A stretch of DNA of 37,473 nucleotides, taken from a virus. Shown here piece after piece: positions 2,274 through 37,473 of this stretch; positions within the stretch are counted from its first letter, which is position 1, and each line of letters starts with the position of its first letter. Both the position numbers and the translations under genes were made by a program. The DNA is taken from positions 1 through 37,473 of the IMG/VR virus record IMGVR_UViG_3300028549_000928; one strand, 5' to 3'. The notes below the pieces were generated by a model. That model was not told where the DNA came from, did not search any database, and worked only from the letters and a program-made list of their open reading frames with translations.

Positions 2274-2300
2274 ACGGTCAAAATTTTGGCCGTTTTTTTT
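2274..2300 (+). terminator. Hairpin plus T-run between the convergent amidase and integrase genes (also an attP-core candidate)
   Basis: acggtcaaaa/ttttggccgt forms a 10-bp stem with one G-T pair and no loop spacer, followed by tttttttt. It abuts the integrase stop codon at 2299-2301. Confidence 0.55.
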
Positions 2301-3888
2301 ATGCAATTTTTTTAAATCTTTCCAGTAAAAAGAATGTTTTATTATATTCTTTCATTGTTATGAATCTTAAAATATTCGCTGCGAAAAGTTCGACAGTAGC
2401 CTCACTAGTCCCGCCATTTTTCAAATTAGGACAATTCAATAGATTATCAAAGACCGAATGTAGCTCTACGCTTAACTTTCGGTCTTTGTATATTAAGTTC
2501 GATACAACGATATTTGTAATAAATCTTTTGTCCTCAGCGTTTCCCCCAATAAAGGCATTATGAGCGTCTTTGCAGAACTTTAATAAAAGTTCGCTCGAAC
2601 TATAAAATTTACTATCAAATTCATTCATTTTTTTTAGTTGATTATAAAGTTCATCTTTTTGGGCATGCCATGCTCGATTCTGAGCCATCCAAAAATCTTC
2701 GGGTATCTTTCCATCTACCTTGTCTATGTAAGCTTGTCCAATCCGTTTCTGAATGGTCTCAATTTGTTTGTTTATTGTTTCAGTTGTATCAAGATTATAA
2801 TCATTCTTTTTTGAGTGAATTTCTCTAATCGCATCAAGAACATCTAAAACAAATTCTTCATTAAAAGAATCCGTTAATATTTTTAATATTTCTGCAATGG
2901 ATTTATCAATTGTATTTTGATTTACGTAAGATTCTTTTTTGCAGCCCTTTTTGTAATAATCATTGCAGCGATAATAAACATATTTTTTCTTTTTTAGTTC
3001 CGCAGTCAATTTACCACCGCACACACCGCAAGTTATGGAGTTTGAATAAGGGAACTCGACACTATGAGACCTTGCCCTTGTTTGAGTGCCTAAACGCTCT
3101 TGTATGAGGTCAAATGTATCATTATCAATTAAGCGTGGGTGTTGAGCCTTTTCACAAATATATCCTCGGTACTCAAACTTGCCAAGATAAAAGATATTTT
3201 TAAACATTCTCTCAATAGTCGCTTTTGAAAATTTATTTCCTCTTGGGGTTCTAAAACCTTCTTTGAATAAAATACTATTTATTCTTAAAGCTGAATAATC
3301 ACCGGTCGCGTAAAGTTCAAAAGCTTTCTTTACAAAGGGCGAACGCTCTTCATCTTCAACAATGATATGTTTTCCATAATTATCAATAATATTTTTATAT
3401 CCAACCGGTGCTTTACTTGGATAAATACCTTCAAGTGCCTTTTCGTCTTGGCCTTTAATGACTTCCTCTGACAAATTATCTACATAGTTTTTAGCCATCA
3501 AAACTTTTATACCGTGCATAAATTTTTCGTGACTTGAGGATTTATCTGAAATGATTGTATTTTCTTTTATTAGATGAACCTCTAAGCCCTCGAATTCATC
3601 AAGGGTCACATAATCAGTCAAGTTTCTATAAATACGGTCGGTTTTTTCAGCAAGAATAATTCTAATATCGGGATTCTTTTTTAAATATTTAACCATTTCA
3701 TTAAATTGTTTACGTCCGGCTTTTTTTGCCGTCTCGGCCTCGAAAAATTCAGCAACAATTACTAAATTGTTGCTTACCGAATAATTATTATTTAACTTTT
3801 TTTGAGCAGGGATTGAGTAACCGCTTTCTTGCCTTGTTGAAGATACTCTTCCATAAGATACTGCTTTGAGTTGTAATGAATTTGCCAT
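2299..3888 (-). CDS. int: Large serine recombinase (phage integrase)
   Basis: N-terminal resolvase catalytic motif YGRVSSTRQ, 529-aa length, recombinase domain and zinc-ribbon CGVCGG...YYRC. This is typical large serine integrase architecture. Confidence 0.92.
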   Translation of the reverse strand: MANSLQLKAVSYGRVSSTRQESGYSIPAQKKLNNNYSVSNNLVIVAEFFEAETAKKAGRKQFNEMVKYLKKNPDIRIILAEKTDRIYRNLTDYVTLDEFEGLEVHLIKENTIISDKSSSHEKFMHGIKVLMAKNYVDNLSEEVIKGQDEKALEGIYPSKAPVGYKNIIDNYGKHIIVEDEERSPFVKKAFELYATGDYSALRINSILFKEGFRTPRGNKFSKATIERMFKNIFYLGKFEYRGYICEKAQHPRLIDNDTFDLIQERLGTQTRARSHSVEFPYSNSITCGVCGGKLTAELKKKKYVYYRCNDYYKKGCKKESYVNQNTIDKSIAEILKILTDSFNEEFVLDVLDAIREIHSKKNDYNLDTTETINKQIETIQKRIGQAYIDKVDGKIPEDFWMAQNRAWHAQKDELYNQLKKMNEFDSKFYSSSELLLKFCKDAHNAFIGGNAEDKRFITNIVVSNLIYKDRKLSVELHSVFDNLLNCPNLKNGGTSEATVELFAANILRFITMKEYNKTFFLLERFKKIA

Positions 3889-3926
3889 ACTAAAATATTA
3901 AATCAAAAATTGGCATAATAGTACAG

Positions 3927-4079
3927 TCATAAAGTTTTGTAAATTCGTTGCTCTTTGTTAAAGTTCATTTCCATTAACTTATAGACGAATGCAGCAACTC
4001 TTTTTGAATCCTCTTTTGGTGAGGATTTTTTTGTTGGTCTAATTATTTCTACTGTTATTTTATCTACTTTAAAATTCAC
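3927..4079 (-). CDS. Small hypothetical protein (50 aa, GTG start); RDF/excisionase role is speculative
   Basis: Hand-translated ORF below the track cut-off: VNFKVDKITVEIIRPTKK...KEQRIYKTL. AGGAAG lies 9 nt upstream. It contains the 4007-4035 hairpin, so it may not be coding. Confidence 0.3.
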   Translation of the reverse strand: MNFKVDKITVEIIRPTKKSSPKEDSKRVAAFVYKLMEMNFNKEQRIYKTL

Positions 4080-4083
4080 TATT

Positions 4084-4227
4084 TTATACTTCCTGATATT
4101 GGCTCGTTGCGAAAGATTCTAAATCTATTTTGTCTTCCTTCAAGAACTCAGCAAGTTCAATTATTGAATTCTTAAAACAATCTTTATTATTGGTTTGTAT
4201 CTCAAATTTATAAGTTTTATTCACCAT
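4084..4227 (-). CDS. Small hypothetical protein (47 aa)
   Basis: Hand-translated: MVNKTYKFEIQTNNKDCFKNSIIELAEFLKEDKIDLESFATSQYQEV. Its ATG overlaps the upstream stop (ATGGTGAATAA), suggesting translational coupling. Confidence 0.4.
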   Translation of the reverse strand: MVNKTYKFEIQTNNKDCFKNSIIELAEFLKEDKIDLESFATSQYQEV

Positions 4228-4408
4228 CTACCGCCTTTAACTCCTTAAATCCGGTGATTATATTGCAGCAATCAGCCCAATGTTGCTTTTCGCCTGTTTT
4301 TACATTTTGAAAACTTAAAGTTGGGTGTGGGCAATAAGAAATACATTGAAAGATTTCTCCATTATTTATAAAATATTTTCCGCAACTGCTTTGGTCATAT
4401 TTAGTCAT
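4217..4408 (-). CDS. Small Cys-rich hypothetical protein (63 aa)
   Basis: Track ORF, 8-nt overlap with the upstream gene. Six Cys/His-rich positions (SSCG, QCISYCPHP, ADCCN). Confidence 0.55.
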   Translation of the reverse strand: MTKYDQSSCGKYFINNGEIFQCISYCPHPTLSFQNVKTGEKQHWADCCNIITGFKELKAVDGE

Positions 4409-4781
4409 TTGTCTTCTCCAATAAATAATTCTTGTTTTTTAACATTTGCTCTACGTGGTACTTCTGAGACTTATTAACCGATTCTAATTCTTCCATGGTG
4501 TGGGGCCTTGATGTCTTTCTAAGACGTGATTCACAATTTCGGCACATATAATATTCACCCAAAATTGAATCATTGGCAGCTATAAAGTATTCACATTCGG
4601 AATCAAAACAATTTAAAACTTCTATTACTGGCAATATCTTAAAAGGTTTGGTTTCTTCATCGGATTTATCTGATTCTTCCATCTTATTATTAAGCCATTC
4701 CTGCAACACTCCGACAATGGAGAGCAGGAAGAGAAAAAGAAATACTAATCCAAATACTAAAATTGATAAAATAGTTTTCAC
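4401..4781 (-). CDS. Membrane-anchored protein with a zinc-ribbon-like CxxC pair
   Basis: N-terminal TM segment ILSILVFGLVFLFLFLLSIVGVL, then CFDSEC ... CRNC. 4-nt overlap with the upstream gene. Confidence 0.6.
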   Translation of the reverse strand: MKTILSILVFGLVFLFLFLLSIVGVLQEWLNNKMEESDKSDEETKPFKILPVIEVLNCFDSECEYFIAANDSILGEYYMCRNCESRLRKTSRPHTMEELESVNKSQKYHVEQMLKNKNYLLEKTND

Positions 4782-5617: not shown

Positions 5618-6400
5618 TTAGATAGCTAAAATCATTTTTGCCAAAGATTTTGGTTTAATTGTTTCCGCACCATACAAATATAAGCCTCTAACCAAATCAG
5701 AGAAACTATCTTTGTCTCTCAGGCTTTCAATTTTTGAAAGTTGAGAGGCAAATGTAATTGCCTCATTTTGCCCTGCAAGCACATAATATTTTCCGGCATC
5801 TTCAATTAGATTTGTGCTGACTAAAACGTCCATACCGGCAACACGGCCAATCGCACCGTCTCTCAACTCTTCATCTGCTACATTATAAGAACTAATGAAC
5901 TCAGGACTTTGTAGCAAATATGATTCAATAGTTGGATTAATTACAACCCAAGGCCTTTGAGTATTTTCGGAATCAATAGCCTTTAACTTTAAAGCAAGTT
6001 TTACAAAATTCTCATAAATAGTATTTTTCTCTAAAGTAATAGGTTTTTCTATTGTGCCTACAATATTATTTGAATCTGCAAAATTATGCTGATTTAAAAG
6101 ATATTCGTCTTGGACTTGCTCAATAGCTTTTTTTGCATTTTGCAAATGGGCTTCCATAATCGCATCATTAGATTGTGCTTGTGCAATATCATTTATCTTA
6201 AATGCAAAGATTTTTTTTTGGTCTATAACTAAATCAGAATCCTCCAATAATGTTTTTACAGAATCGCCTTGATATTTTATTCCTCCCTCATAATTCTGAT
6301 TTACGCATTTACGCATTGTTCCATTTTGCAACATACTTTCAAGTTTTTGCCCCCAAATATCAGGCTGAAATGCGTTGTAATTGTTTTCAGTTTCTTCCAT
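5618..6400 (-). CDS. Compact HK97-fold / P22-coat-like capsid-like protein (260 aa) encoded in the early leftward operon
   Basis: Pattern match by eye to the P22-coat family: FQPDIWGQKLESML...VNQNYEGGIKYQGDSVKT at the N-terminus, INDIAQAQSN, RPWVVINPT, GAIGRVAGMDVLVSTN, AGQNEAITFASQ and VRGLYLYGAETIKPKSL at the C-terminus. That it is a CDS is secure; the fold assignment needs HMM or structure confirmation. Confidence 0.6.
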   Translation of the reverse strand: MEETENNYNAFQPDIWGQKLESMLQNGTMRKCVNQNYEGGIKYQGDSVKTLLEDSDLVIDQKKIFAFKINDIAQAQSNDAIMEAHLQNAKKAIEQVQDEYLLNQHNFADSNNIVGTIEKPITLEKNTIYENFVKLALKLKAIDSENTQRPWVVINPTIESYLLQSPEFISSYNVADEELRDGAIGRVAGMDVLVSTNLIEDAGKYYVLAGQNEAITFASQLSKIESLRDKDSFSDLVRGLYLYGAETIKPKSLAKMILAI

Positions 6401-12207: not shown

Positions 12208-12492
12208 ATGAAGAAAATATTTTGTTTATTATTTATTTTACTTTTTGCTAATTGCGTATCTGCAGAAATGCACAGCTATACAAGAATCGGTGACATAACC
12301 TATGGCTCTAATGGTTCTACTTATACAAAAGTGGGCGATATAACCTATGGGCCAAAGGGTTCTACTTATACAAAGGTAGGCGATACAGTTTATGCTTACG
12401 AGCCTAATTATTCTCAAAGACTGAATAGCAATAATAGCAATAGTCAAAATTCAAGATGTACAAGAATTCAAGGGCAATATTATTGTCATTAA
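12208..12492 (+). CDS. Secreted or lipid-anchored small repeat protein (moron candidate)
   Basis: Signal peptide MKKIFCLLFILLFANCVSA. Tandem 15-aa repeats T(R/K)(I/V)GDITYG(S/P)(N/K)GSTY are encoded by 45-bp repeats at 12280-12324 and 12325-12369, with a partial third. Asn/Ser-rich tail ending in C...C. Confidence 0.7.
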   Translation: MKKIFCLLFILLFANCVSAEMHSYTRIGDITYGSNGSTYTKVGDITYGPKGSTYTKVGDTVYAYEPNYSQRLNSNNSNSQNSRCTRIQGQYYCH

Positions 12493-12555: not shown

Positions 12556-12560
12556 TGTTC

Positions 12561-12724
12561 GCAATGCGACTGAAATTTTTTAGCAATGCGACATTGAAAT
12601 AATAAAAATGCGAACGCAATGCGATTGCAATGCGAACGCATACCGAACGCATTGCGTTCGCATTTTCTTTAGCAATGCGACTAAAAAATAAACGCAATGC
12701 GAAGATTTTTCTTTCGCAATGCTA
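12561..12724. repeat. Iteron array: GCAATGCGA repeated in about 11-bp phase
   Basis: Perfect copies start at 12561, 12583, 12616, 12627, 12672 and 12694. An 8/9 copy starts at 12716. Degenerate copies start at 12605 and 12638. An inverted copy lies within the palindrome cgaacgcaTtgcgttcg (12644-12660). Spacings are 22, 22, 11, 11, 11, 11, 23, 22 and 22 bp. Confidence 0.85.
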
Positions 12725-20725: not shown

Positions 20726-21652
20726 ATGGGAGCAACACTAAACCCTTCAATTGAACAAGCTTATTTGCAGACTTTTGAGAAAAATTTCTACAAATTGGCA
20801 CAACAACAAGACACATTACTTTTAAAAACTCCGGCGATCAAATTTATGGACATTAAAGGTATTTCGAATGTGTCAAGATTGGGCAAAACAGAACTTGGCG
20901 AAGTAACAGGACAAAGAAACCCTGAGAAACAATATTCTGAAATGTCTAATGACAACAGAAAATCGAAAGCAAGAAGATTTACAAAAACCTTTGTAGTAGA
21001 TTCTTACGACAAGGCGGTAAATCTAATTACTGACCCTACTGGTGATTTGTTCACGCTTTTACAACAAGCAAAAAACAGAACGACCGATAGAGTTATTGTT
21101 GATGCTGCGGTTGGTAATGTTGTAATCGGAAGACCTGATGAGGCCGGAACAACTAAAACTGCTGCTGAGGATGGAGTAATTACGATTGTTGGTACATCAA
21201 GTTTCAACTATCAACAAGTTATTGCACCGGCAATCAGAAATTTCACTAATAATGAAATTGATGCACAAAGTGGAGTAACACTTGCTCTTACCGGTTCAGA
21301 AAAAGAATCGCTTATGAATGATGATAAATACATTCATGCGTTCTATTCTAACGGTGGGGTGATTGATAAAGGCGATATTAAAAAAGCATCAAACTTTGAT
21401 ATTATCGCTTTTGCAGGAACTGATAATGGAGTTATTACAGTTAATAACCCTATTCTTCCTGAACTTGCTAACGGAACACGTCAAAACTTGATTCTAGCAC
21501 CTCAATCAATCGGCTTTGCAATGGAAGTTGGAAGATTGGATTGTGAAAAATCTAGTAAGTATGTAAATTCTTGGGAAGTTACTATTGATGTATGGTTCAA
21601 GGCTTTACGTTTAGAAGGTGGAAAAGTACAAATTGTAACTTCTACAATCTAG
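20726..21652 (+). CDS. Major capsid protein
   Basis: 308 aa with AAAGGAGAAA RBS, located after the scaffold gene and followed by a strong terminator. The N-terminal pattern (EQAYLQTFEKNFYKLAQQQ...RLGKTELGEVTGQRNPE) is typical of podovirus capsid proteins. Confidence 0.8.
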   Translation: MGATLNPSIEQAYLQTFEKNFYKLAQQQDTLLLKTPAIKFMDIKGISNVSRLGKTELGEVTGQRNPEKQYSEMSNDNRKSKARRFTKTFVVDSYDKAVNLITDPTGDLFTLLQQAKNRTTDRVIVDAAVGNVVIGRPDEAGTTKTAAEDGVITIVGTSSFNYQQVIAPAIRNFTNNEIDAQSGVTLALTGSEKESLMNDDKYIHAFYSNGGVIDKGDIKKASNFDIIAFAGTDNGVITVNNPILPELANGTRQNLILAPQSIGFAMEVGRLDCEKSSKYVNSWEVTIDVWFKALRLEGGKVQIVTSTI

Positions 21653-27809: not shown

Positions 27810-30800
27810 GTGGCAAAATTTTTAATAAAATCCCCACAAGGGGTTCAATTCCAAATAGAAAGTGATGGTGATTCCGCACCTACTGAACAAGAATTGAATA
27901 AAATATATTCAAGTCAATTGAAAACCAACGGTGTTGAGTACAATCAACCTAGTAATCATAATGAATTGACTTCTTTTGCTAAAGAAAAAATTAAGGCGGA
28001 AGACCCTATTCGTGCTAAAAAGTGGGAAAGTATGGGTAAAATTTCACCTTTTCAAGCTGCTCAAGAAACAATTAAAAGTGAAGTGGGCGGATTCTTTAAA
28101 AGTTTTTCTGATAATTATATGAAAGCCGTTATGGAAGATTCTAAAATTAACGAAAAAAGACAAGGGGTTGATAGAAATAAACCTCACACACGCTATGAAA
28201 TAGCCGGAATAGATAGAGCCGGACAACCAATGTATAGAGAAATTGACTTGAGCAAAAAAATAGGATTTATGGAAGGACTGAGAAATGCCCTTGCTTATAA
28301 TATGCCTTTTATCGGACAAGCTGCAAAAGGGTTGGATGATAAAAAAGAAAGAGAAATTGTTAAAAAAATCAAAAATAACGAAAACGTCGGAGATGATGAA
28401 GTTAAATTTTTGAACCATAGAATTGATAAACGCAAGGAATATATCATGCGTGGTGTCGGTATTGACGGACAAATTGGTGAAGGATTGGCTGAAACTGCAA
28501 GACTAGGTGGTGAATTATATTTTGGCGGTACTGTGTTTAAAGCATTGGGTGGTGCAAAATTAGCCGGTGCGATTCCATCAAAAGCCGGACAATGGGCGGT
28601 TAATACTTTGGGCGGTGGTGCAGTAGCAACACTTGCGAATCCGCAAAGCATCTACGCAAATTTTCAGGAAAGAATGTTGAATAATGAAATGAAAATTACA
28701 GATTTAGGAAAAGTGGTTTTTAAGGATTCAGAAGAAAAGCCGGCTACTGCATTTTATAAATCTTTGTTTGGTGCATTTTTAAGTAATGCAACTGAAATTG
28801 GCGGCGGTCAATTGTTAGATTCAACCTTTGGACTTACCGGAAAAGTTGCAAGTAATTTAATGAAAAAGAATCCGGCATTGAAAAAACTTATTGAAAAATC
28901 TTCAACTCAATTTGCTAAATATTATGAGAAGGTCAATAATCTTCCGGTAGTCGGAAAGAGTGCGGATTGGCTTTCCAAAAGAGTACACTTTGACGGATTG
29001 CTTGAAGAAATGGGAGAGGAAAGTTTAGAAGACATTTTGCATTTAACTTTTGGAATCAATAATGAAGATAGAAGTTTAGAAAATTATACAAAAGCAGCTT
29101 TTAAATCTCCGGAAGAATGGGCTGTTATTGCAGGAACAATTGCAATGTACGGCGGTGGTGTGTCTATGACAAGCCATCTTTTGAATGCAAGACTTCAAGA
29201 AACAAATTTGAATCAAGAACAAATTGACGAGATTTTACATACTTCATCAGAATCTGAGAAGGTCGATTTGCTTGAAGATATGATTCAAACAAACGGTGTA
29301 ACAATTAAAGGTAGTATAGAATACAACGCTTTAAGGCATCAATTAGTTAGTGCCGGCAGAACAGATGAACAAGCTGAAACTGAAATTCAAGCGTTAAATA
29401 GGATTGATAAAGTTCTTTTGGATAAATACAATCAAGATGGCGAGGCTGAGACATTAATTAAAAAAAGAAATTTAAAGGCCTTGAGTATAAATAATAAAAT
29501 CCAACAAAAGCGTGAAGAAAATTTTGTTAGTGAAAATATGGGCGGACGTGAACGTCAAACATTTAGACCGGAAGAATTAAATACTGATGCTAAAGCTTTT
29601 CAATATAAAGAAAATTCTGATAGTGAAGGTGTCACCGATAGATTAGAAGGGATTGAGGAATTTGACCCTTTATTTGCCGGAGATGTTATTGTTTATGAAA
29701 CAAAAGATGGAGAAAAATATATTGCAGACGGACATCAACGGCTTGGGCTTGCTAAAAGACTTGAAGACCCGAATATTAAATTAAGCGGTTATGTCTTCAA
29801 GGAATCTGATGGATTCACTCCGGAGAAAGTAAGAGTTCTTGCAGCACAAAAAAACATTGCGGAAGGTTCAGGAACTGCGATTGATACCGCTAAAATCATA
29901 AAAGAAATAGGAGTTGAAAACATTCCTAAGTCTTTACCAAAGAATTCCGCATTGGTGAGAAATGGAATTTCACTTGCACGTTTTGGAGATGAGGCTTTTC
30001 AAAAAGTTATCAATGGTGATGTTACTCCTCAACAAGGTGCGGTGATAGCTGACGTTATAAGAAATGATGAAGTTAAGCAATCCGTTTGTATTGATGGAGT
30101 TAAAAAGGCAAGATTTGAGAATCTTGAGCAAGTCGCATTATTTGCTCAGGAGGTTTTGAGTGCCGATACAACGCAAAGTGAGCAGACAAATTTATTCGGA
30201 ACTGAAACAATTTTTGAGACCACGGCGATCGAAAAAATACAAATTGTTGACAGAGCAACAAAATTATTAAAACAAGATAAAAAAATCTTTACCGGATTAT
30301 TGAGAAATAAAGCAAAGATTGAAAGTATAGGAGAAAACGAACTTGATTCAAAAACGAATGAAGAGGTCAAACTTGATGCAGATAAAGCAATTACAATTAT
30401 ACAAAAATTGTCTTGTATGCGTGGAGAAATATCAGATAAAGCCAATAAACTTGCCAAAGAATATAAAGATGGAAAAATAACTTTTAATCACGCAGTTATG
30501 CAATTTAGAGACTATGCACAATCAAAGGAAGTCTTGGAAAGTATCTTTGGCCAAAAAACCCAAGAAAACAATCTTGGTAAAGAAATTGAATCACAAGAAG
30601 TTAAAACTGTGCAAGAAATTGAGCAGGATGAGGATTTGGAGAGTGATGGGATTGATGAGGCTCTTGGATTAAAAAAACTCCCCTTAAAAGGTTTTGAAAA
30701 AGAATCTGAAAAAACCGCAAAAAAAGAACAAGATGAAATTTCAAAAAAAGAATCACGTGAAAAAAACTCAACAACTGCAGATGGATTTCAAAATGCTATG

Positions 30801-33713
30801 TTTAATATTGAACAGTTTAAAGATGGTCAATCAATGCTTTTTGATACTTCTGATATGAAGAATGCCGTCTCTTATTCTCAATCAAGTAAAGACGAATTCA
30901 AGGAAGATTCCAGAGCCTTTATTCAATTCAGAAATGATGAAACCATTATAGGACTTCTTGAAGGCCATGACGCTTCGTCCGTAGTACACGAATTAGCACA
31001 CCTTTACTTGCACGACATACAAGAACTCGCAAAAACAAACAAACGTGCAGCCAAGGACTTACAGGAGGTCTATGAATGGCTTGGTAGAGACTTACATAAA
31101 GAATATACAGAAGATGAAGAAAGAGAGTTACACGAGAAGTTTGCACGAGGCTTTGAGGGCTATTTGATGAATGGTCAAGCACCTACGCAACGTATGCAAA
31201 CACTTTTTGATAAATTTAAAATATTTTTAGAAGATGTTTATAAGCATTTTGAAGAGTTGGGAATAGATTTTTCAGAAGATGTTAAACGTGGATTTGATAG
31301 ACTTTTTACAACTGATGAAGAATACGAAAAAGAAGTTTTACCAATGTATGAGCAGAATTATGAGATGTTGAGTAGTCTTCGGCCGTCTTTTTGGGAATCC
31401 ATCCGGAATAATACAAAGAATAATGTTCAAGCAATAAGCCATTGGTGGGATGCCTTGGCGATTCCTATTGATACACGTCTTGGTAAAATTGACCCTAAAT
31501 TGAAAAACATTATTAAAAAACATACTTTCGATATTATGAATATTAACGCAAAGGATGCCAAGGCAATGACACCCTTTCTTGAAACTGCTCAGAAAATGCA
31601 AAGAGAAAACGAAAAGGATTTTAAAATTCTTGACCTTGCATTAAAAAATCGTGATACTTACATGACAAATAAGATTCTTAAAAAATATAATTTATCAAAA
31701 GATTTTGAGGCCGTAAAAGATATTTTGGATAGTATCTATAATGAATCAGTAGAAGTCGGTCTTGATTTGGGTTATCTTGAAAATTATTTCCCACGTTTAA
31801 TTGATAATAATAAATCTGAACAATTCCTTGATTATTTTGAAAAAATGGCACTACAAGAAGAGATTGACATAAGAAATCAGATTATCGACTTCGAAGAGGC
31901 ACAATATTCGAATGCCATAAAATCATTGAGAGATGCAGACCCTGATGGTTTATGGTCAAGAGAAGACAAGGCAAAATTTTTAAATACTCTCATTAGAGGC
32001 TTTGGGAAAAATAATATTATGCTTTCAAGAATAGGGCAATTGAAATTTGAAAGACAAATTGATAAATTAACTCCGGAACTCAACGCTTTTTATAAATCGT
32101 TTACTGAGGCTTTGGCATATTATATTCCTTCTGCTCGTAAGAACATTGAGGAAAGAAAATTCTTTGGTGGTGAAAATAAAGAAGTAGGAAAGCTTAGAGG
32201 CACAATAAAACAAAAACGCACAACCCTAAAAGAGGTCAAGGAAAGAACTCCAAGCCAAGCAAAATTCAAAGAGGCTACAAGATTAAAGTACGAATTATCA
32301 AGTGTTGTTATCAGGCACGAAAACGCTCTTAGGTCTTATAGTAATGGAATTATTGCATCTGAAAATACTCAAAAAAGATTCAGCGGAGTAAAGGATGAGT
32401 ATGTTCCAAACTTGGAAGAAATGAAAGCTAATATTGACAAGCTAGGAGAGCAAAGAAAGCACCTTGAAGAACAGATTGAATACATAGAAGGTGAAAATCC
32501 TCTTACTGTTAAAAATATTGTAATGAGAAGATTGACAGAAGATATAAAAAAAGCGAATGAACAAATAGGACTAATTATCGGTGATGAAAAAAATATTGAA
32601 AATAGTATTGGTGCTTTAGTGTCTTCACTTGTTTTCAATGGCGATATTTATGCAAAAGATGAAAAAATAATCAGAGACCTTTTAGTTGCTAGATTTAGCA
32701 ATGCAAAAGTCAATGGTGCAACCGCCTTTATCCGTGATGTTGGTTATATTGGAACTTTAAATGATATTACAAATGCTGTAACTCAATTTGGAGACCTTGC
32801 TTTTTCTGCTTATAAATTCGGCTTATTTGATACAATCGCCGGAGCAAGAAAAGTTGAAGGATTGACCCGTAAAGATTTAGGATTATCAACGATTGCGGAA
32901 GAATTTCAGAATCCGGAAGGAACGGCAAAAGCAGTTAATAATATCTTAAAATGGATTGGGCTTGAGGCAATTGACGGATTCGGCAAAAATACGGTTATCA
33001 ATGCCTCTGTAAATAAAGCAAGAAGACTTGCAAAAAAGGATGATAAAAAATTAAATGAAAAATTGAAATTTATGTTCGGTGATGAGGCAAAACAAGTCAA
33101 GCAAGATTTGATTGATGGTAATATTACGGACGGAGTTTTATTTATTGCTTATAGTGACCTTTCAGATATTCAACCTATATCAATTGACCAAATGACAGAA
33201 ATTTATTCAAAAGGTGGAGTATATAGATTGTTTTATATGCTAAAAACTTATTCAATAAAAGCGGTTGATATTGTTAGAAATGATTGTTTTATGAAAATAT
33301 CAGAAGGAACAAAAACAAAAAATAAATCACTTATTGGTGAAGGTTTAATGAACTTGGCCAGACTTCAATTTTTTATGCTTATGTTTGGGATTCCAAAAGA
33401 TATGTTGGTTGATTTTATTTTAAATAGAGAATTCAACCTCCCTGAAAGTGTCATGGATAATTTGATTACTTCTTTGATATTTAACAGATTCGTAAAAAGA
33501 ACTTTTGAAAAAGAAGGTCTTGGAAGTGCCACATTAAACTATGCAATACCACCATTTTTCAGAATGCTTGACACTTGGACTAAAGACACTATGTCGGTTG
33601 TTCAAGGCAAAAAAGATATTAAAGATGCTTATGGATGGGCTTACATTCCATTCGCAGGAAAGCTTTACTACAATTGGCTTGGTGGGTCTAAGCATAAGAG
33701 AGTTGAACAATAA
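27810..33713 (+). CDS. Giant (1967 aa) internal virion / ejected polyvalent protein with a ParB/Srx-like motif and an HExxH zincin motif
   Basis: GTG start after an AAAGGAAA RBS. Contains GDVIVYETKDGEKYIADGHQRLGLAKRL (DGHQR at 29727-29741) and SSVVHELAHLYLHD (HELAH at 30987-31001), followed by ELHEKFARGFEGYLMNG. Position matches T7 gp16-class proteins. Confidence 0.8.
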   Translation: MAKFLIKSPQGVQFQIESDGDSAPTEQELNKIYSSQLKTNGVEYNQPSNHNELTSFAKEKIKAEDPIRAKKWESMGKISPFQAAQETIKSEVGGFFKSFSDNYMKAVMEDSKINEKRQGVDRNKPHTRYEIAGIDRAGQPMYREIDLSKKIGFMEGLRNALAYNMPFIGQAAKGLDDKKEREIVKKIKNNENVGDDEVKFLNHRIDKRKEYIMRGVGIDGQIGEGLAETARLGGELYFGGTVFKALGGAKLAGAIPSKAGQWAVNTLGGGAVATLANPQSIYANFQERMLNNEMKITDLGKVVFKDSEEKPATAFYKSLFGAFLSNATEIGGGQLLDSTFGLTGKVASNLMKKNPALKKLIEKSSTQFAKYYEKVNNLPVVGKSADWLSKRVHFDGLLEEMGEESLEDILHLTFGINNEDRSLENYTKAAFKSPEEWAVIAGTIAMYGGGVSMTSHLLNARLQETNLNQEQIDEILHTSSESEKVDLLEDMIQTNGVTIKGSIEYNALRHQLVSAGRTDEQAETEIQALNRIDKVLLDKYNQDGEAETLIKKRNLKALSINNKIQQKREENFVSENMGGRERQTFRPEELNTDAKAFQYKENSDSEGVTDRLEGIEEFDPLFAGDVIVYETKDGEKYIADGHQRLGLAKRLEDPNIKLSGYVFKESDGFTPEKVRVLAAQKNIAEGSGTAIDTAKIIKEIGVENIPKSLPKNSALVRNGISLARFGDEAFQKVINGDVTPQQGAVIADVIRNDEVKQSVCIDGVKKARFENLEQVALFAQEVLSADTTQSEQTNLFGTETIFETTAIEKIQIVDRATKLLKQDKKIFTGLLRNKAKIESIGENELDSKTNEEVKLDADKAITIIQKLSCMRGEISDKANKLAKEYKDGKITFNHAVMQFRDYAQSKEVLESIFGQKTQENNLGKEIESQEVKTVQEIEQDEDLESDGIDEALGLKKLPLKGFEKESEKTAKKEQDEISKKESREKNSTTADGFQNAMFNIEQFKDGQSMLFDTSDMKNAVSYSQSSKDEFKEDSRAFIQFRNDETIIGLLEGHDASSVVHELAHLYLHDIQELAKTNKRAAKDLQEVYEWLGRDLHKEYTEDEERELHEKFARGFEGYLMNGQAPTQRMQTLFDKFKIFLEDVYKHFEELGIDFSEDVKRGFDRLFTTDEEYEKEVLPMYEQNYEMLSSLRPSFWESIRNNTKNNVQAISHWWDALAIPIDTRLGKIDPKLKNIIKKHTFDIMNINAKDAKAMTPFLETAQKMQRENEKDFKILDLALKNRDTYMTNKILKKYNLSKDFEAVKDILDSIYNESVEVGLDLGYLENYFPRLIDNNKSEQFLDYFEKMALQEEIDIRNQIIDFEEAQYSNAIKSLRDADPDGLWSREDKAKFLNTLIRGFGKNNIMLSRIGQLKFERQIDKLTPELNAFYKSFTEALAYYIPSARKNIEERKFFGGENKEVGKLRGTIKQKRTTLKEVKERTPSQAKFKEATRLKYELSSVVIRHENALRSYSNGIIASENTQKRFSGVKDEYVPNLEEMKANIDKLGEQRKHLEEQIEYIEGENPLTVKNIVMRRLTEDIKKANEQIGLIIGDEKNIENSIGALVSSLVFNGDIYAKDEKIIRDLLVARFSNAKVNGATAFIRDVGYIGTLNDITNAVTQFGDLAFSAYKFGLFDTIAGARKVEGLTRKDLGLSTIAEEFQNPEGTAKAVNNILKWIGLEAIDGFGKNTVINASVNKARRLAKKDDKKLNEKLKFMFGDEAKQVKQDLIDGNITDGVLFIAYSDLSDIQPISIDQMTEIYSKGGVYRLFYMLKTYSIKAVDIVRNDCFMKISEGTKTKNKSLIGEGLMNLARLQFFMLMFGIPKDMLVDFILNREFNLPESVMDNLITSLIFNRFVKRTFEKEGLGSATLNYAIPPFFRMLDTWTKDTMSVVQGKKDIKDAYGWAYIPFAGKLYYNWLGGSKHKRVEQ

Positions 33714-33728
33714 CAGAAGGAGATTAAA

Positions 33729-35903
33729 ATGACAAATACAGTAGCTTACGCACCAAAAAAGCAAAACGGAAATGGAGTGACAAAAGATGTTTCGTTTGCT
33801 TGGAAAATATTTAAAGAAACTGATTTAATAATAATAATTGAAAATGATATTACTAAAGTCCAAAGAACGCTTGAGTTGGGAACTGATTATTCTGTTACTT
33901 TTAGCGGTGGAACTGGGGGTAATGTTTCATTAGTTGTTGCACCTCCTACCGGAGAAACAATTATTGTAACTAGAAATACACCTCAAGAACAAGGTTCATC
34001 TTATTTAACCTCGCCCGGATTTGATGCAAAAGAAGTTGAAAAATCACTTGATAGAGCAAGCGTTATTGTTCAAGATGTAAATTATTCGCTGAAACGTGCA
34101 ATAAAAGTTCCAATAGGTTCAGAAGCTTTAAATTTAAGCTTGCCTGCCCCGAATGCCGGTAAAACTCTTAAATGGAATGAGACTGAGGACGGCTTGGTTA
34201 ATTCAGATGTTAATGTTGATGATATTGATACTGCGGTACAAGAGGCTAAAGACTATGCAGATGCTGCAATAAATTCTGCAAATAGTGCAACGGCATCTGC
34301 TGCAAGTGCTGCATCTGGAATTGCAGTTTTTAATACAACCTACGAGGGTGCTTTGCAAGACTTGGTGGATGGAAAAGAAGAGATTGAAACTCAGGCTATT
34401 TTATCCTTGAATCAGTTAAGAGATGCAGGGTACGGTTTACCTCCGTCTATCTGCAAAAACCTTATGATTAAAAAAGTTGGGGTTAATGTTTCTTTAAAAT
34501 GGGAAGATAGTGGAAACACAATTCTTGATGAAAAATATATCTGCACATGGGCAGGAACAAAAATTGTCAAAAGGCTCGGTGGCTATCCTAGAAATGAAAC
34601 TGACGGAGTTTTGGTTGTTGATAATTTAATAAACAACCAGTATCTAAATTCTGCATATATTGATGTCTTGGCTGATTCAGGTGAGAATTGGTATTATGCT
34701 GCATTCCCTTATTCAACAAATGGGGCATATTGTTATAATGCAAAGAATAACTTCACAGAGGCGATTGTTTATGAATTTTGTATCAATCCTAATGATGCAA
34801 ACCCTATCACGAGGGTAACTCGTCCTGTTGATTCTGTAAACAAGGACTTTGTACATGCGTATATGAATTTTGGCAGCGGTGCATTTAATTATGGAAGTTG
34901 GGAACACGCTTTCTTTATGCCTCGCCCTGTAATGGTCAAGTATGATGGAACGGTTGACTATGAACTTTATAAGCAAAATTTCAATTACAAAGCTGACGGT
35001 GTTACTCCAAGCGGTATTGCTAATACGGCTTATGGCGGTAATGTTATGATTGCATTCCCTCAAGTTTGGTTTAAATTTGTTATGGATGGAACTCTTCAGC
35101 ACGTTTATATTGCTAACAAGCAAGTTGATGAAAATTATAAGTGCTATACTCACTACAATAGGCTTGGAACATTGCTTAATGAAATATTTATAAATGCTTA
35201 TCAACCTTGTAATGTTTCATCAAAATTGAGAAGTCTTTCAGGACAAACAATTTATGTAGGGGCTGCAGGAACAACTGAAATTGCTTATGCTCAAGCAAAT
35301 GGTGATGGTTGGTATTTGTGGGATTATGCTTTCTTTAATATGATGAATATGTTGCTTGTTTTAATGTGTGGGTCAACAAATATTCAATCAAAATTTGGTG
35401 AAGGTCGCTCAAGTGCTGCGAATGCAACAACCGGAGAATGCAACGACAAAGGAATGTTTTACGGCACAAGTGCAAATGGGGCAGTAAAAATATTTGGTAT
35501 CGAAAATTATTATGGGAATTATTGGAAAAGGACAGCCGGTTGCGTTTATACTGCAGCAGGGATGAAATATAAAATGACTGAATCAACTCTTGACGGCTCA
35601 ACTGTTGTTGGGTATAACACGGACGGTACAGGCTATTTGACACATCAAGCATTTAGCGGAACAACTGGCGGATATATCTCAGCAGCTTCATTGACTGCAA
35701 ACGGAATATTCCCAACTGTCGCAAGTGGTTCAAGTTCAACTTACTTCTCAGATGGTCTTTGGTGGGCTGCAGGTGGTTACGCTATTGTCGGCGGTGATTA
35801 TGCCGACGGTGCTCTTGCCGGTTCGTTCTGTCTGTTTCTGAGCGATGCCGTGTCGACTGCCGGCGCTAACATCGGGGCTTCGCTTTCGTGTAAGCCTCTT
35901 TAA
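33729..35903 (+). CDS. Tail fibre / receptor-binding protein: T7-tail-fibre-like N-terminal adaptor domain and a C-terminal DGR variable region (C-type-lectin-fold candidate)
   Basis: The N-terminus (VSFAWKIFKETDLIIIIEND...LELGTDYSVTF...IIVTRNTPQEQ...LDRASVIVQDV) matches the Phage_T7_tail pattern. The C-terminus GGYAIVGGDYADGALAGSFCLFLSDAVSTAGANIGASLSC carries the VR. Confidence 0.9.
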   Translation: MTNTVAYAPKKQNGNGVTKDVSFAWKIFKETDLIIIIENDITKVQRTLELGTDYSVTFSGGTGGNVSLVVAPPTGETIIVTRNTPQEQGSSYLTSPGFDAKEVEKSLDRASVIVQDVNYSLKRAIKVPIGSEALNLSLPAPNAGKTLKWNETEDGLVNSDVNVDDIDTAVQEAKDYADAAINSANSATASAASAASGIAVFNTTYEGALQDLVDGKEEIETQAILSLNQLRDAGYGLPPSICKNLMIKKVGVNVSLKWEDSGNTILDEKYICTWAGTKIVKRLGGYPRNETDGVLVVDNLINNQYLNSAYIDVLADSGENWYYAAFPYSTNGAYCYNAKNNFTEAIVYEFCINPNDANPITRVTRPVDSVNKDFVHAYMNFGSGAFNYGSWEHAFFMPRPVMVKYDGTVDYELYKQNFNYKADGVTPSGIANTAYGGNVMIAFPQVWFKFVMDGTLQHVYIANKQVDENYKCYTHYNRLGTLLNEIFINAYQPCNVSSKLRSLSGQTIYVGAAGTTEIAYAQANGDGWYLWDYAFFNMMNMLLVLMCGSTNIQSKFGEGRSSAANATTGECNDKGMFYGTSANGAVKIFGIENYYGNYWKRTAGCVYTAAGMKYKMTESTLDGSTVVGYNTDGTGYLTHQAFSGTTGGYISAASLTANGIFPTVASGSSSTYFSDGLWWAAGGYAIVGGDYADGALAGSFCLFLSDAVSTAGANIGASLSCKPL
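35780..35887 (+). repeat. DGR variable repeat (VR), inside the last 41 codons of the tail-fibre gene
   Basis: Gap-free 108-bp alignment to 35968-35075+1000 (that is, 35968-36075) with 96/108 identity. All 12 differences lie opposite TR adenines. Confidence 0.93.
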
Positions 35904-35909
35904 GGGGGA

Positions 35910-35927
35910 GTGGGGGGTTTCCCCCAC
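35910..35927 (+). promoter_or_regulatory. GC-rich hairpin downstream of the VR (DGR target-recognition element candidate)
   Basis: GTGGGGG-GTTT-CCCCCAC: a 7-bp stem and 4-nt loop, 22 nt after the VR end and 6 nt after the stop codon. No U-run follows, so it is not a typical intrinsic terminator. Confidence 0.7.
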
Positions 35928-35967
35928 AAAGCAAAAATTGAATAAATAGGGATATTGAATACGCTCT

Positions 35968-36075
35968 CGCTATTGTCGGCGGTAATTATGACAACGGTGC
36001 TCTTGACGGTTCGTTCTGTCTGAATCTGAACAATGCCGTGTCGAATGCCAACGCTAACATCGGGGCTTCGCATTC
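35968..36075 (+). repeat. DGR template repeat (TR)
   Basis: Contains 22 adenines, 12 of which are substituted in the VR. Read in the VR frame it has 8 AAY codons and ends in TAA. Located 132 bp upstream of the RT start. Confidence 0.93.
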
Positions 36076-36207
36076 TTAAACATTGTCTTTGAAAAATTTC
36101 TTAATGTACTCAATATTCCTTGCCACTTGGCAAAAATTAACCGAATAAGAGGTGCGTGCTAGTAGCTTGTTGAACGCTCGCAAGGTGTTTAAGAAAGAAT
36201 ATAATAA

Positions 36208-37356
36208 ATGAAGTCATATAACCATCTTTTTGAAAAGTTGGTGAGTAGTGAGAATATAAGTCTTGCAATCACCAACGCTTCAAGAAGAAAAAGCAAAAGA
36301 AAAGATGTTCGTTACATCTTGGAACACAGAGAAGAATTTACAAAGAAAATACAAGATTTACTTATAAGTCAAGAATTTAAACCACAAAAACACAGGCTCG
36401 TAAAAATCTATGATAAAAGTTCTAAAAAAGAGAGATACATCATTCAACCTTATTTCCGCATCAATAAGCAGGGAGAGGAAGTCTTTGAACAAATAATCCA
36501 TCACGCTGTTATTCAGGTGTTAAGCCCTGTTTTTATGCGTGGAATGTATAAATACTCTTGCGGTTCAATTCCTAAGCGTGGAGGGCATTATGGCAAGAAG
36601 TATCTTGAAAAATATATCAAAGAACATGATGAGAATGAGATAAAATATTGCTGCAAGTTTGACATTCGACACTATTATTTGACGGTCAACGTGCCCTTGC
36701 TGAAAGAAAAGTTTAAGGTAAAAATACACGATGAGAAAATGCTTAAAATCATTTTTGCAATTCTTGATAGTAATATCGCAATGAATAACGGAAAGCTTTT
36801 TGACATGGGCTTGCCTATCGGTTTTTATACTTCGCAATGGTTTGCAAATTGGTTTCTTGAAGATTTCGATCACTTCATAAAAGAGGAATTAAAAATCAAA
36901 TGCTTTGTTCGCTATATTGATGATGTGATTTTATTTAGCCCTAATAAAAGGGATTTGCACAAAAAGCTGAAACGGATTAACAATTTTCTAAAAAATATTA
37001 AACTGGAACTTAAAAAGAATTATCAAGTTTTTAAATTTGACTACGGAAACAATAAAGGTCGCCCACTCGATTTTATGGGCTTCAAATTTTATAGAAACCG
37101 TACAACGCTGAGAAAATCAATTCTCCACAATGCGGTTAAGAAGGCAAGGAAAATTCAAAAGAAAACAACTCCAACTCATTATGATGCAAGTCAAATACTC
37201 AGTTATTTGGGTTGGTTTAAAAGTACAAAAACGTTTGAGTTTTTCAAGCGTACAGTTGCACAAATGATTAATTTAAGAGCGTGTAAGTTACTGATAAGTA
37301 GAAAAAGTAAAGGAGAAACAAATGATATTGAATTGGGAAGTTGCGGAAAGCACTGA
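36208..37356 (+). CDS. DGR-type reverse transcriptase (382 aa)
   Basis: Motifs in order: KKERYIIQPYF...QIIHHAVIQVL, SIPKRGGHYG, KFDIRHYYLTV, LPIGFYTSQWFANWFL (the IGxxxSQ hallmark of DGR RTs), YIDD (36913-36924) and FMGFKFY. The 3' end is duplicated at 1-138 by the assembly overlap. Confidence 0.92.
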   Translation: MKSYNHLFEKLVSSENISLAITNASRRKSKRKDVRYILEHREEFTKKIQDLLISQEFKPQKHRLVKIYDKSSKKERYIIQPYFRINKQGEEVFEQIIHHAVIQVLSPVFMRGMYKYSCGSIPKRGGHYGKKYLEKYIKEHDENEIKYCCKFDIRHYYLTVNVPLLKEKFKVKIHDEKMLKIIFAILDSNIAMNNGKLFDMGLPIGFYTSQWFANWFLEDFDHFIKEELKIKCFVRYIDDVILFSPNKRDLHKKLKRINNFLKNIKLELKKNYQVFKFDYGNNKGRPLDFMGFKFYRNRTTLRKSILHNAVKKARKIQKKTTPTHYDASQILSYLGWFKSTKTFEFFKRTVAQMINLRACKLLISRKSKGETNDIELGSCGKH

Positions 37357-37473
37357 AAGACCTCTTGAGGTTGATAATATGCTCTCCCCTAGTGGGGTAT
37401 ATCTGAGAAAAGATGTACAGGAAGTCGAAGGAAAATTTCAATATAAAGAAGTTTTTCTAGGGCAAGAATACAA
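37219..37473. repeat. Second copy of the 255-bp terminal overlap (contains the RT 3' end and the 5' part of ORF 104-622)
   Basis: Identical to 1-255 by direct reading. Confidence 0.95.

Follow-up and report, generated by a model that had tools for sequence, protein, structure and literature searches.

The virus record IMGVR_UViG_3300028549_000928 of IMG/VR contains a tail-fibre gene whose last codons are repeated a short distance downstream, in front of a gene for a reverse transcriptase (RT). This arrangement raises the question of whether the locus is a diversity-generating retroelement (DGR), i.e., an element in which information is transferred from a template repeat (TR) to a variable repeat (VR) with changes specifically at template adenines and, if so, whether the element is complete without the accessory protein Avd, the gene of which is part of the DGR of Bordetella phage BPP-1. 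Here, "the window" refers to the entire stretch of DNA that was analyzed (37,473 nucleotides, positions 1 to 37,473 of the record), and coordinates are those of the window unless another record is named. We are highly confident that the region is a complete, accessory-gene-free DGR, composed of a target gene with its VR, a TR, a structured RNA and an RT, in a circular temperate phage of 37.2 kb that probably infects Gastranaerophilales (Melainabacteria) of the gut. The components of the element are:

33729-35903, plus strand: DGR target, a 724-aa tail (fibre) protein, the last gene of the structural module; matches phrog_5302 "tail protein" (6.5e-66, residues 343-723)
34758-35900, plus strand: C-terminal 381-aa variable-protein module of the target (residues 344-724), with a predicted C-type-lectin-type fold displaying the VR
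35780-35887, plus strand: VR, codons 684-719 of the 724-aa target open reading frame (ORF), aligned without gaps to the TR
Residues 686, 690-693, 697, 703, 705, 706, 710, 712, 714, 715 and 719 of the target: adenine-templated residues of the VR, from codon mapping
35872-35887, plus strand: 3' end of the VR, composed of the A-free, GC-rich TCGGGGCTTCGC (35872-35883), position 35884 with T in the VR against A in the TR (a fixed difference), and 35887 as the last homologous position; proposed boundary resembling an initiation of mutagenic homing (IMH) site
35910-35927, no strand assigned: GC-rich inverted repeat GTGGGGG-GTTT-CCCCCAC with a 7-bp stem and a 4-nt loop, 22 nt after the VR (DNA fold)
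35968-36075, plus strand: TR, non-coding, with 22 adenines, which in the VR frame fall in eight AAY codons, two GAC, and TAT, CAT, ATT and ATC
36076-36118, plus strand: linker between the TR and the structured RNA, with the single-stranded conserved motif CTTAATGT at 36100-36107
36119-36199, plus strand: structured spacer RNA, Rfam RT-18 (RF03021), with helices P1 (UGCC/GGCA), a long-range P2 and a 7-bp P3
36208-37356, plus strand: DGR RT, an intact ORF of 382 aa with a pI of 9.85; matches Pfam RVT_1 (3e-14) and phrog_1423 (4e-93)

The repeat pair, the target protein and the reverse transcriptase

Realignment of the two repeats reproduced exactly the pattern described in an initial annotation made from the sequence alone. 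The VR and the TR align without gaps over 108 nt at an offset of 188, and their homology collapses sharply at both ends. At each of the 12 mismatches (TR positions 35984, 35991, 35993, 36006, 36023, 36024, 36030, 36032, 36045, 36050, 36051 and 36072, where the VR has G, C, G, C, T, T, G, G, C, G, G and T, respectively) the TR base is an adenine. No mismatch was found at a non-A template position over the 108 nt, i.e., all 86 such positions are identical, and 10 of the 22 TR adenines are unchanged in the VR. Given the composition of the TR (22 A, 31 T, 28 G and 27 C), the hypergeometric probability that all 12 mismatches would land on the 22 adenines by chance is 2.3e-10. The repeat is present only twice in the genome, as a single VR and a single TR, and the VR stands out as an island of 59% GC in a genome of 34.4% GC.

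The VR lies, as first proposed, at the C-terminal end of the 724-aa ORF. Read in the VR frame, the TR encodes ...AIVGGNYDNGALDGSFCLNLNNAVSNANANIGASHS*, and a recount again gave eight AAY codons. All 22 TR adenines are found at codon positions 1 or 2, mostly in AAY codons, which allows recoding without the introduction of stop codons, and all 12 changes in the VR with respect to the TR are non-synonymous. The TR adenines address 14 residues. The initial estimate of up to 4^22 variants (1.76e13) holds as an upper bound at the DNA level, but the ceiling at the protein level is lower, 15^8 x 4^6 = 1.05e13, and becomes ~2.6e12 by simple arithmetic when residue 719 is left out.

This last residue deserves separate consideration. 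The 12-nt block TCGGGGCTTCGC is the same in the VR and the TR, and is followed by the twelfth mismatch, T at VR position 35884 versus A at TR position 36072 (CTT, Leu, versus CAT, His), 3 nt before homology ends. The same A-to-T difference is found in all five sequences of the window's clade, the site is a constant T or C across the family, and conservation of Leu719 reaches at least 90% in 57 homologues. For comparison, ordinary A-templated sites in 89 non-redundant VR/TR pairs of the family are unchanged in ~45% of cases. As judged from these alignments, position 35884 is thus probably not diversified; either TR and VR differ there in a fixed manner because it marks the 3' boundary, or the residue is structural and under strong selection. 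In the former case it would be akin to the difference between IMH and IMH* of BPP-1, and the 3' block as a whole presumably serves as the homing boundary. Two statistics of A-sites in the last 9-10 nt were too noisy to be used, because the alignment ends differ among loci; the claim concerning 35884 is instead based on register-true alignments and protein conservation. As a separate observation, the bases found at changed A-sites in VRs of the family (G, T and C in 51%, 27% and 22%, respectively) are unlike the preference of the BPP-1 RT (bRT), which in vitro prefers to misincorporate dATP, giving A to T (PMC7826257); selection on the displayed residues confounds this comparison.

The target carries two recognizable parts. 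Its N-terminal ~130 residues match the N-termini of tail and tail-fibre PHROGs; the protein gave no match in Pfam. The C-terminal module was modeled with AlphaFold2 at a pLDDT of 96.8 and a pTM of 0.94, and the top Foldseek matches of this model in the PDB are the Thermus aquaticus variable protein TaqVP (5vf4, 3e-9) and Mtd (1yu0-1yu4, ~3e-4), followed by PvdO, FGE and TvpA (2y3c). On the basis of the model, the module is assigned the C-type-lectin-type fold of DGR variable proteins. Its family counts at least 1168 homologues and is not covered by any Pfam model, and in nearly all related loci the module adjoins an RT. The variable tip of the protein would presumably bind the receptor.

The RT harbors the motifs IGFYTSQ (at residue 204) and YIDD (at residue 236). 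The sequence [I/V/L]GxxxSQ is a signature of DGR RTs, where other RTs have QGxxxSP, and residues R74 and I181 of bRT promote adenine mutagenesis (Handa et al., PMC7826257). The best PDB match of the window RT is 8ub7_A (328 aa, E = 1.3e-16), in which R74 and I181 pair with R84 and I204 of the window RT. We infer from its length and from the numbering of R74, I181 and Q187 that 8ub7_A is bRT; no paper describing this PDB entry was found.

Structured elements and the accessory-protein question

In BPP-1, homing requires a DNA hairpin or cruciform with a GC-rich stem of 7-10 bp and a loop of 4 nt, located 4-34 bp after the VR; the loop has the consensus GRNA and is functionally important in that phage (Guo et al.). 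The inverted repeat at 35910-35927 fits these ranges of stem, loop length and distance, and is therefore a candidate target-recognition hairpin or cruciform. A hairpin of the form GGGGG-N4-CCCCC is found 3' of the VR in ~91 of 99 family loci, in 82 of these loci with a 4-nt loop, and the stem GCGGGGG/CCCCCGC of relatives represents a compensatory change. The loops vary in the family (AACT, TTTT, GCTT and others), and the GRNA loop is a feature of the BPP-1 group rather than of DGRs in general. We also considered that the hairpin is a plain transcription terminator, but it has no T tail and a consensus scan made no terminator-like call.

The 132-nt spacer that separates TR and RT contains a match to Rfam family RT-18 at 36121-36196, with 50.0 bits against a gathering score of 41.3 (E = 5e-8) and with all helices kept. 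RT-18 is the only Rfam family that exceeds its gathering score here; RT-17 falls just below its own at the same place. The 3' tail of the RNA reaches into the ribosome-binding region of the RT gene. At the Rfam threshold, 14 of 20 family loci have RT-18 just upstream of the RT. We also built a covariance model (R1), which scores 104.8 bits on the window; in 54 of 63 and 28 of 31 sources (82 of 94 together) it matches each locus a single time, on the same strand as the RT gene and immediately adjacent to its start. The structure is supported by covariation, with 96.9% of cells paired and compensatory changes in 12 of 13 pairs, as compared to 29-43% in slid controls. Alignment with MAFFT followed by RNAalifold recovered only P1 when RT-18 members bearing inserts were included, and the structure was solved by imposing the Rfam helices on a cleaner alignment together with the covariance model. 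Single-sequence folding of the TR and the entire spacer was no better than that of shuffled sequences (z = 0.18).

RT-18 is one of the "RT motifs" of unassigned function described by Weinberg et al. (2017), who placed another motif, RT-10, between TR and RT of BPP-1 and speculated that other RT motifs serve other DGRs. In the present data RT-18 is pinned between the TR and a DGR RT in more than 80 loci, and it presumably has a role in priming or in recruitment of the RT. The linker that precedes it contains no conserved helix in an alignment of 12 loci; the motif in this linker has a family consensus of roughly YTTAMAATGT. By analogy, the linker is the expected region of cDNA priming, and CTTAATGT, situated between the 3' end of the TR and P1, could be a priming or RT-contact site.

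None of the 28 window ORFs scanned gave an Avd-type Pfam match. The gene directly after the RT was considered for a similar role:

37322-37473, then 104-622: ORF172, 172 aa with a pI of 4.64; its start overlaps the RT stop by 35 nt

The model of ORF172 has a pLDDT of 91.7 and a mixed beta/alpha fold, and the protein matched nothing in the PDB (by sequence or by fold), in Pfam or in PHROG. Its family consists of only 21 proteins, all unannotated. The N-terminal ~50 aa recur directly 3' of the RT in many related loci, and the remainder varies. A role as an Avd-like accessory factor was rejected, considering that ORF172 is acidic, does not form a helical bundle, has no match in the PDB and shares only this N-terminal part with other RT neighborhoods.

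The absence of Avd is not in itself unusual. Avd is present in 74% of DGRs, and Wu et al. (2018, PMC5758913) found no accessory genes in 29% of DGRs (Architecture A). In their Architecture A1, which comprises 75 of 372 DGRs and consists of a target, a TR and an RT, homing was inferred to be Avd-independent, and an RT "Lineage 3" without avd was described. The window cassette has the same gene order and the same absence of accessory genes as Architecture A1; no link between these Avd-less elements and the RT-18 RNA is drawn in PMC5758913. The element in the window would presumably operate independently of Avd. A more specific proposal, which we advance tentatively and with our confidence falling somewhat short of the balance, is that in this lineage the RT-18 RNA and the RT need no further partner and together make up a self-sufficient diversifier, in which the RNA replaces the scaffolding and priming role that Avd and the spacer (Sp) RNA have in BPP-1. 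If true, a function would be found for an orphan Rfam motif, and the element, present here in phages of uncultured Gastranaerophilales, would represent a minimal DGR of two parts.

A cycle of diversification would begin with an RNA made across the TR and the downstream RT-18 structure. The RT would bind this RNA and convert the TR to cDNA, copying U, C and G faithfully and inserting random nucleotides opposite the adenines. This cDNA would then replace the VR in the 3'-terminal part of the tail-fibre gene, where the A-free, GC-rich block and the GC hairpin would mark the target. As a result, up to 14 residues at the tip of the lectin fold would be recoded and the receptor specificity could be altered.

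Relatives, activity and competing explanations

The question of whether the element is active was addressed by comparison with related loci. The closest relatives are four short contigs from other samples, taken from the 90% protein cluster of the RT; L001 comes from IMG/VR (84% RT identity). Flanking DNA diverges by 12-17% among the window, L001, L140/L141 and L142. The TR adenine positions are identical in L140, L141 and L142, and L001 has one site fewer. At non-A positions the TRs of these lineages differ from each other by 4-10 nt per pair, and every one of these differences (100%) is mirrored in each lineage's own VR, which shows that transfer from TR to VR went on after the lineages split. 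With no differences at the 86 non-A positions, the VR of the window was rewritten from its own TR at a much later date than the split of the lineages. Between L140 and L141, from different samples, only 3 of 2217 nt differ, one of them at an A-templated VR site and none in the TR.

The same pattern is seen in the wider family. A-biased TR/VR pairs are present in 99 of 144 family loci, with 1321 of 1429 mismatches at TR adenines. Between near-identical loci from different samples, the differences at A-templated VR sites account for 16 of 16 (L041/L043), 7 of 7 (L022/L117), 5 of 5 (L048/L049) and 14 of 17 (L010/L011), where each pair has 0-1 differences in the TR and 20-30 A-templated VR positions. 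Such VR-only variation among near-identical loci is, as read from the alignments, the signature of mutagenic homing in nature. The suggestion that the element is active or was recently so thus gains indirect support, since the VRs of relatives track their own TRs and near-identical phages differ almost only at A-templated VR sites; variation of the VR against a fixed TR was found both at the level of the family and for L140/L141.

The interpretation of the locus as a DGR, which the initial annotation had put forward, is sustained by the A-specific mismatches, an RT with the IGFYTSQ and YIDD motifs, a target with the TaqVP/Mtd fold, the hairpin after the VR and the structured RNA that separates TR and RT. 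A number of points weigh on the other side. One of the 12 mismatches, that at 35884, is probably not mutagenic. In the PDB search a group II intron RT scores E = 2.9e-14, and the match to bRT is only modestly better (1.3e-16). The hairpin loop, GTTT, is unlike the GRNA consensus, and no test of the Avd-less mechanism was found for the lineage of the window. Furthermore, a second copy of this exact phage was not found: the exact A-masked TR/VR pattern returned nothing from viral or metagenome contigs, blastn against GenBank phages returned nothing, an exact-RT look-up returned only the source contig, and a scan of metagenomes with the RT protein gave nothing closer than 55%. The evidence for present variation of the window's VR is therefore indirect.

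This last point bears on a rival explanation that we consider unlikely, namely that the DGR was active until recently and is now silent, having lost a host factor, its expression or a trans-acting accessory protein, such that the VR is a frozen record of the last homing event. The failure to find a second copy of the phage would be compatible with such a scenario, as would the failure to recognize Avd or any other accessory protein and the departure of the hairpin loop from GRNA. However, the ORF of the RT is uninterrupted and retains every catalytic and signature residue, the VR and the non-coding TR have 0 of 86 non-A differences, the TR adenines, the RNA structure and the hairpin are kept across relatives, and Avd-less relatives demonstrably vary their VRs. 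Far less probable still is that the RT belongs to another type of retroelement or defence system (a group II intron, a retron, DRT/UG or Abi) and is located beside the repeat by coincidence. Generic models do match the protein, including the NCBIfam model for group II intron RTs/maturases (TIGR04416), Drt3a and several UG models of PADLOC, where the matches are of a generic RT-domain type, but the scores are far below the curated cut-offs (92.8 versus 300 bits for TIGR04416, 62 versus 200 for Drt3a, 39 versus 235 for retron_St85_RT and 34 versus 550 for Drt5). The RT has the motif IGxxxSQ rather than QGxxxSP, no Rfam family of group II intron RNA was found at E <= 10 in 35600-36400 and no retron msr/msd was matched in Rfam at the locus, i.e., neither intron RNA domains nor the retron RNA accompany the gene. 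Moreover, the RT, the RNA, the TR and the target form one cassette across more than 90 loci in differing phage backbones.

The least probable alternative, to which we assign next to no weight, is that the 108-nt copies are an ordinary duplication or gene-conversion tract, with mismatches confined to adenines by coincidence or by some mutational bias that has nothing to do with reverse transcription. The bare existence of a direct repeat speaks for this explanation, but nothing more, and it is effectively refuted already. The chance probability is 2.3e-10, the pattern is repeated in the 99 related loci described above, it is directional in that the TR is invariant when the VR varies, and an RT with a DGR signature is found next to it. 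An accessory-gene-free DGR remains the preferred reading of the locus.

Phage context and comparison with known systems

Positions 1-255 of the window are identical to 37219-37473, i.e., there is an exact terminal direct repeat of 255 nt, which implies that the genome is complete, at 37,218 bp, and either closed into a circle or terminally redundant. ORF172 and the RT gene, with its 3' end, span the genome junction. Two further genes are pertinent to the character of the phage:

2299-3888, minus strand: large serine integrase
27810-33713: ORF of 1967 aa, directly upstream of the target; no NCBIfam match

The 1967-aa ORF presumably encodes a giant tail or injection protein. The genome also encodes a CI-type helix-turn-helix protein, the small and large terminase subunits, a portal, a major capsid protein, a T7 Gp13-like protein, an internal-virion-like protein and an SLT lytic tail protein; a DUF1353 protein and an amidase endolysin follow the RT. 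This gene content indicates a temperate, podovirus-like phage. RT relatives with 45-54% identity are found on long contigs of Gastranaerophilales, Melainabacteria and Vampirovibrio metagenome-assembled genomes, including a complete chromosome of 2.24 Mb; Gastranaerophilales labels are also found among homologues of the target and of ORF172, and the low GC content fits. Taken together, these sequence relationships suggest that the host is probably a member of the Gastranaerophilales. The nearest genomic RT relatives (L144-L172) are located in prophage-like loci, e.g., OZ006972.1 684172-691299. No paper linking Melainabacteria and DGRs was found in the literature searched.

Three observations elsewhere in the genome are recorded in their own right. 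In the gap between the regulatory region and the terminase module, 12559-12724 contains ~10 copies of GCAATGCGA on both strands; genome-wide, this sequence has 20 matches at no more than one mismatch against 6.7 expected, and the cluster looks like an iteron, operator or packaging-site array. In the early/lysogeny block, a 260-aa protein encoded on the minus strand (5618-6400) matches phrog_267 "major head protein" (1.4e-32), and the genome has a separate capsid gene (20726-21652) and structural module on the plus strand; the former match may reflect a mislabelled PHROG or a moron. A tandem duplication of 45 nt with 80% identity is found at 12277-12366, inside a small ORF (12208-12492).

With respect to known systems, the element has much in common with the DGR of BPP-1 (mtd-VR, avd, TR, Sp RNA and brt), which the initial annotation had taken as the paradigm. 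Both transfer adenine-specific changes from an AAY-rich template to the ~40 codons with which the gene of a phage receptor-binding protein ends. In both, the RT has [I/V/L]GxxxSQ and R74 and I181 or their equivalents, a structured RNA separates TR and RT, and the VR is GC-rich at its 3' end, after which comes a GC-rich hairpin whose loop has 4 nt; the target has an Mtd-like lectin fold. In contrast, the window lacks avd, its spacer RNA is RT-18 rather than RT-10, its loop is GTTT rather than GRNA, its RT is 54 aa longer, and the identity to Mtd is ~14% over the structural alignment. BPP-1 is thus only a partial paradigm, because there is no Avd: the adenine-specific, AAY-rich transfer applies, the accessory protein is absent. 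The best structural match to the C-terminal 381 residues of the target is TaqVP (PDB 5VF4), with E = 3e-9 and a probability of 1.00 over the full length, but the TM-score is 0.44, the identity is 14% and TaqVP does not belong to a phage tail.

The deposited phages with the closest RTs are Lactobacillus phage LBR48 (40%), the Butyrivibrio phages Arawn, Idris and Closwp03 (39%) and Faecalibacterium phage FP_Epona (35%, an RT homologue only). The cassette of Arawn has the following coordinates:

NC_048848.1 (L175), 2992-3102, 3234-3344, 3410-3499 and 3501-4646: Arawn cassette

Like the window, Arawn has a homologous target (38.5% identity) directly upstream of the RT and no avd. Its repeats show nine of nine A-specific mismatches, its hairpin is CGGGGGA-GCAC-TCCCCCG, and an RT-18-like RNA abuts the RT. 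The RNA model also matches both L175 and L176, and in LBR48 the RNA is found just upstream of the RT. In the stretch of the Arawn record that was examined, the RT is labelled "Reverse transcriptase" only, and there are no features for a VR, a TR or a hairpin. These cultured Firmicutes phages differ from the podovirus-like phage of the window in backbone and host, and their RT identities are 35-40%.

Since both the architecture of Wu et al. and the Arawn-type cassettes match, the element in the window is of an already known type, and its presence is unsurprising given the large number of DGRs in gut phages and the cataloguing of the Avd-less architecture in 2018. Its value lies elsewhere. The window provides a complete temperate phage genome with a device for switching tropism and with a probable host in the Gastranaerophilales, a gut lineage with very few known phages. 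The compact cassette, in which the TR, the RNA and the RT span ~1.6 kb without an accessory protein, is a candidate minimal DGR for reconstitution and engineering. Finally, where BPP-1 has RT-10, the more than 80 Avd-less DGRs considered here have RT-18 tied to the position between TR and RT, which supports the speculation from 2017 that RT motifs other than RT-10 serve DGRs.

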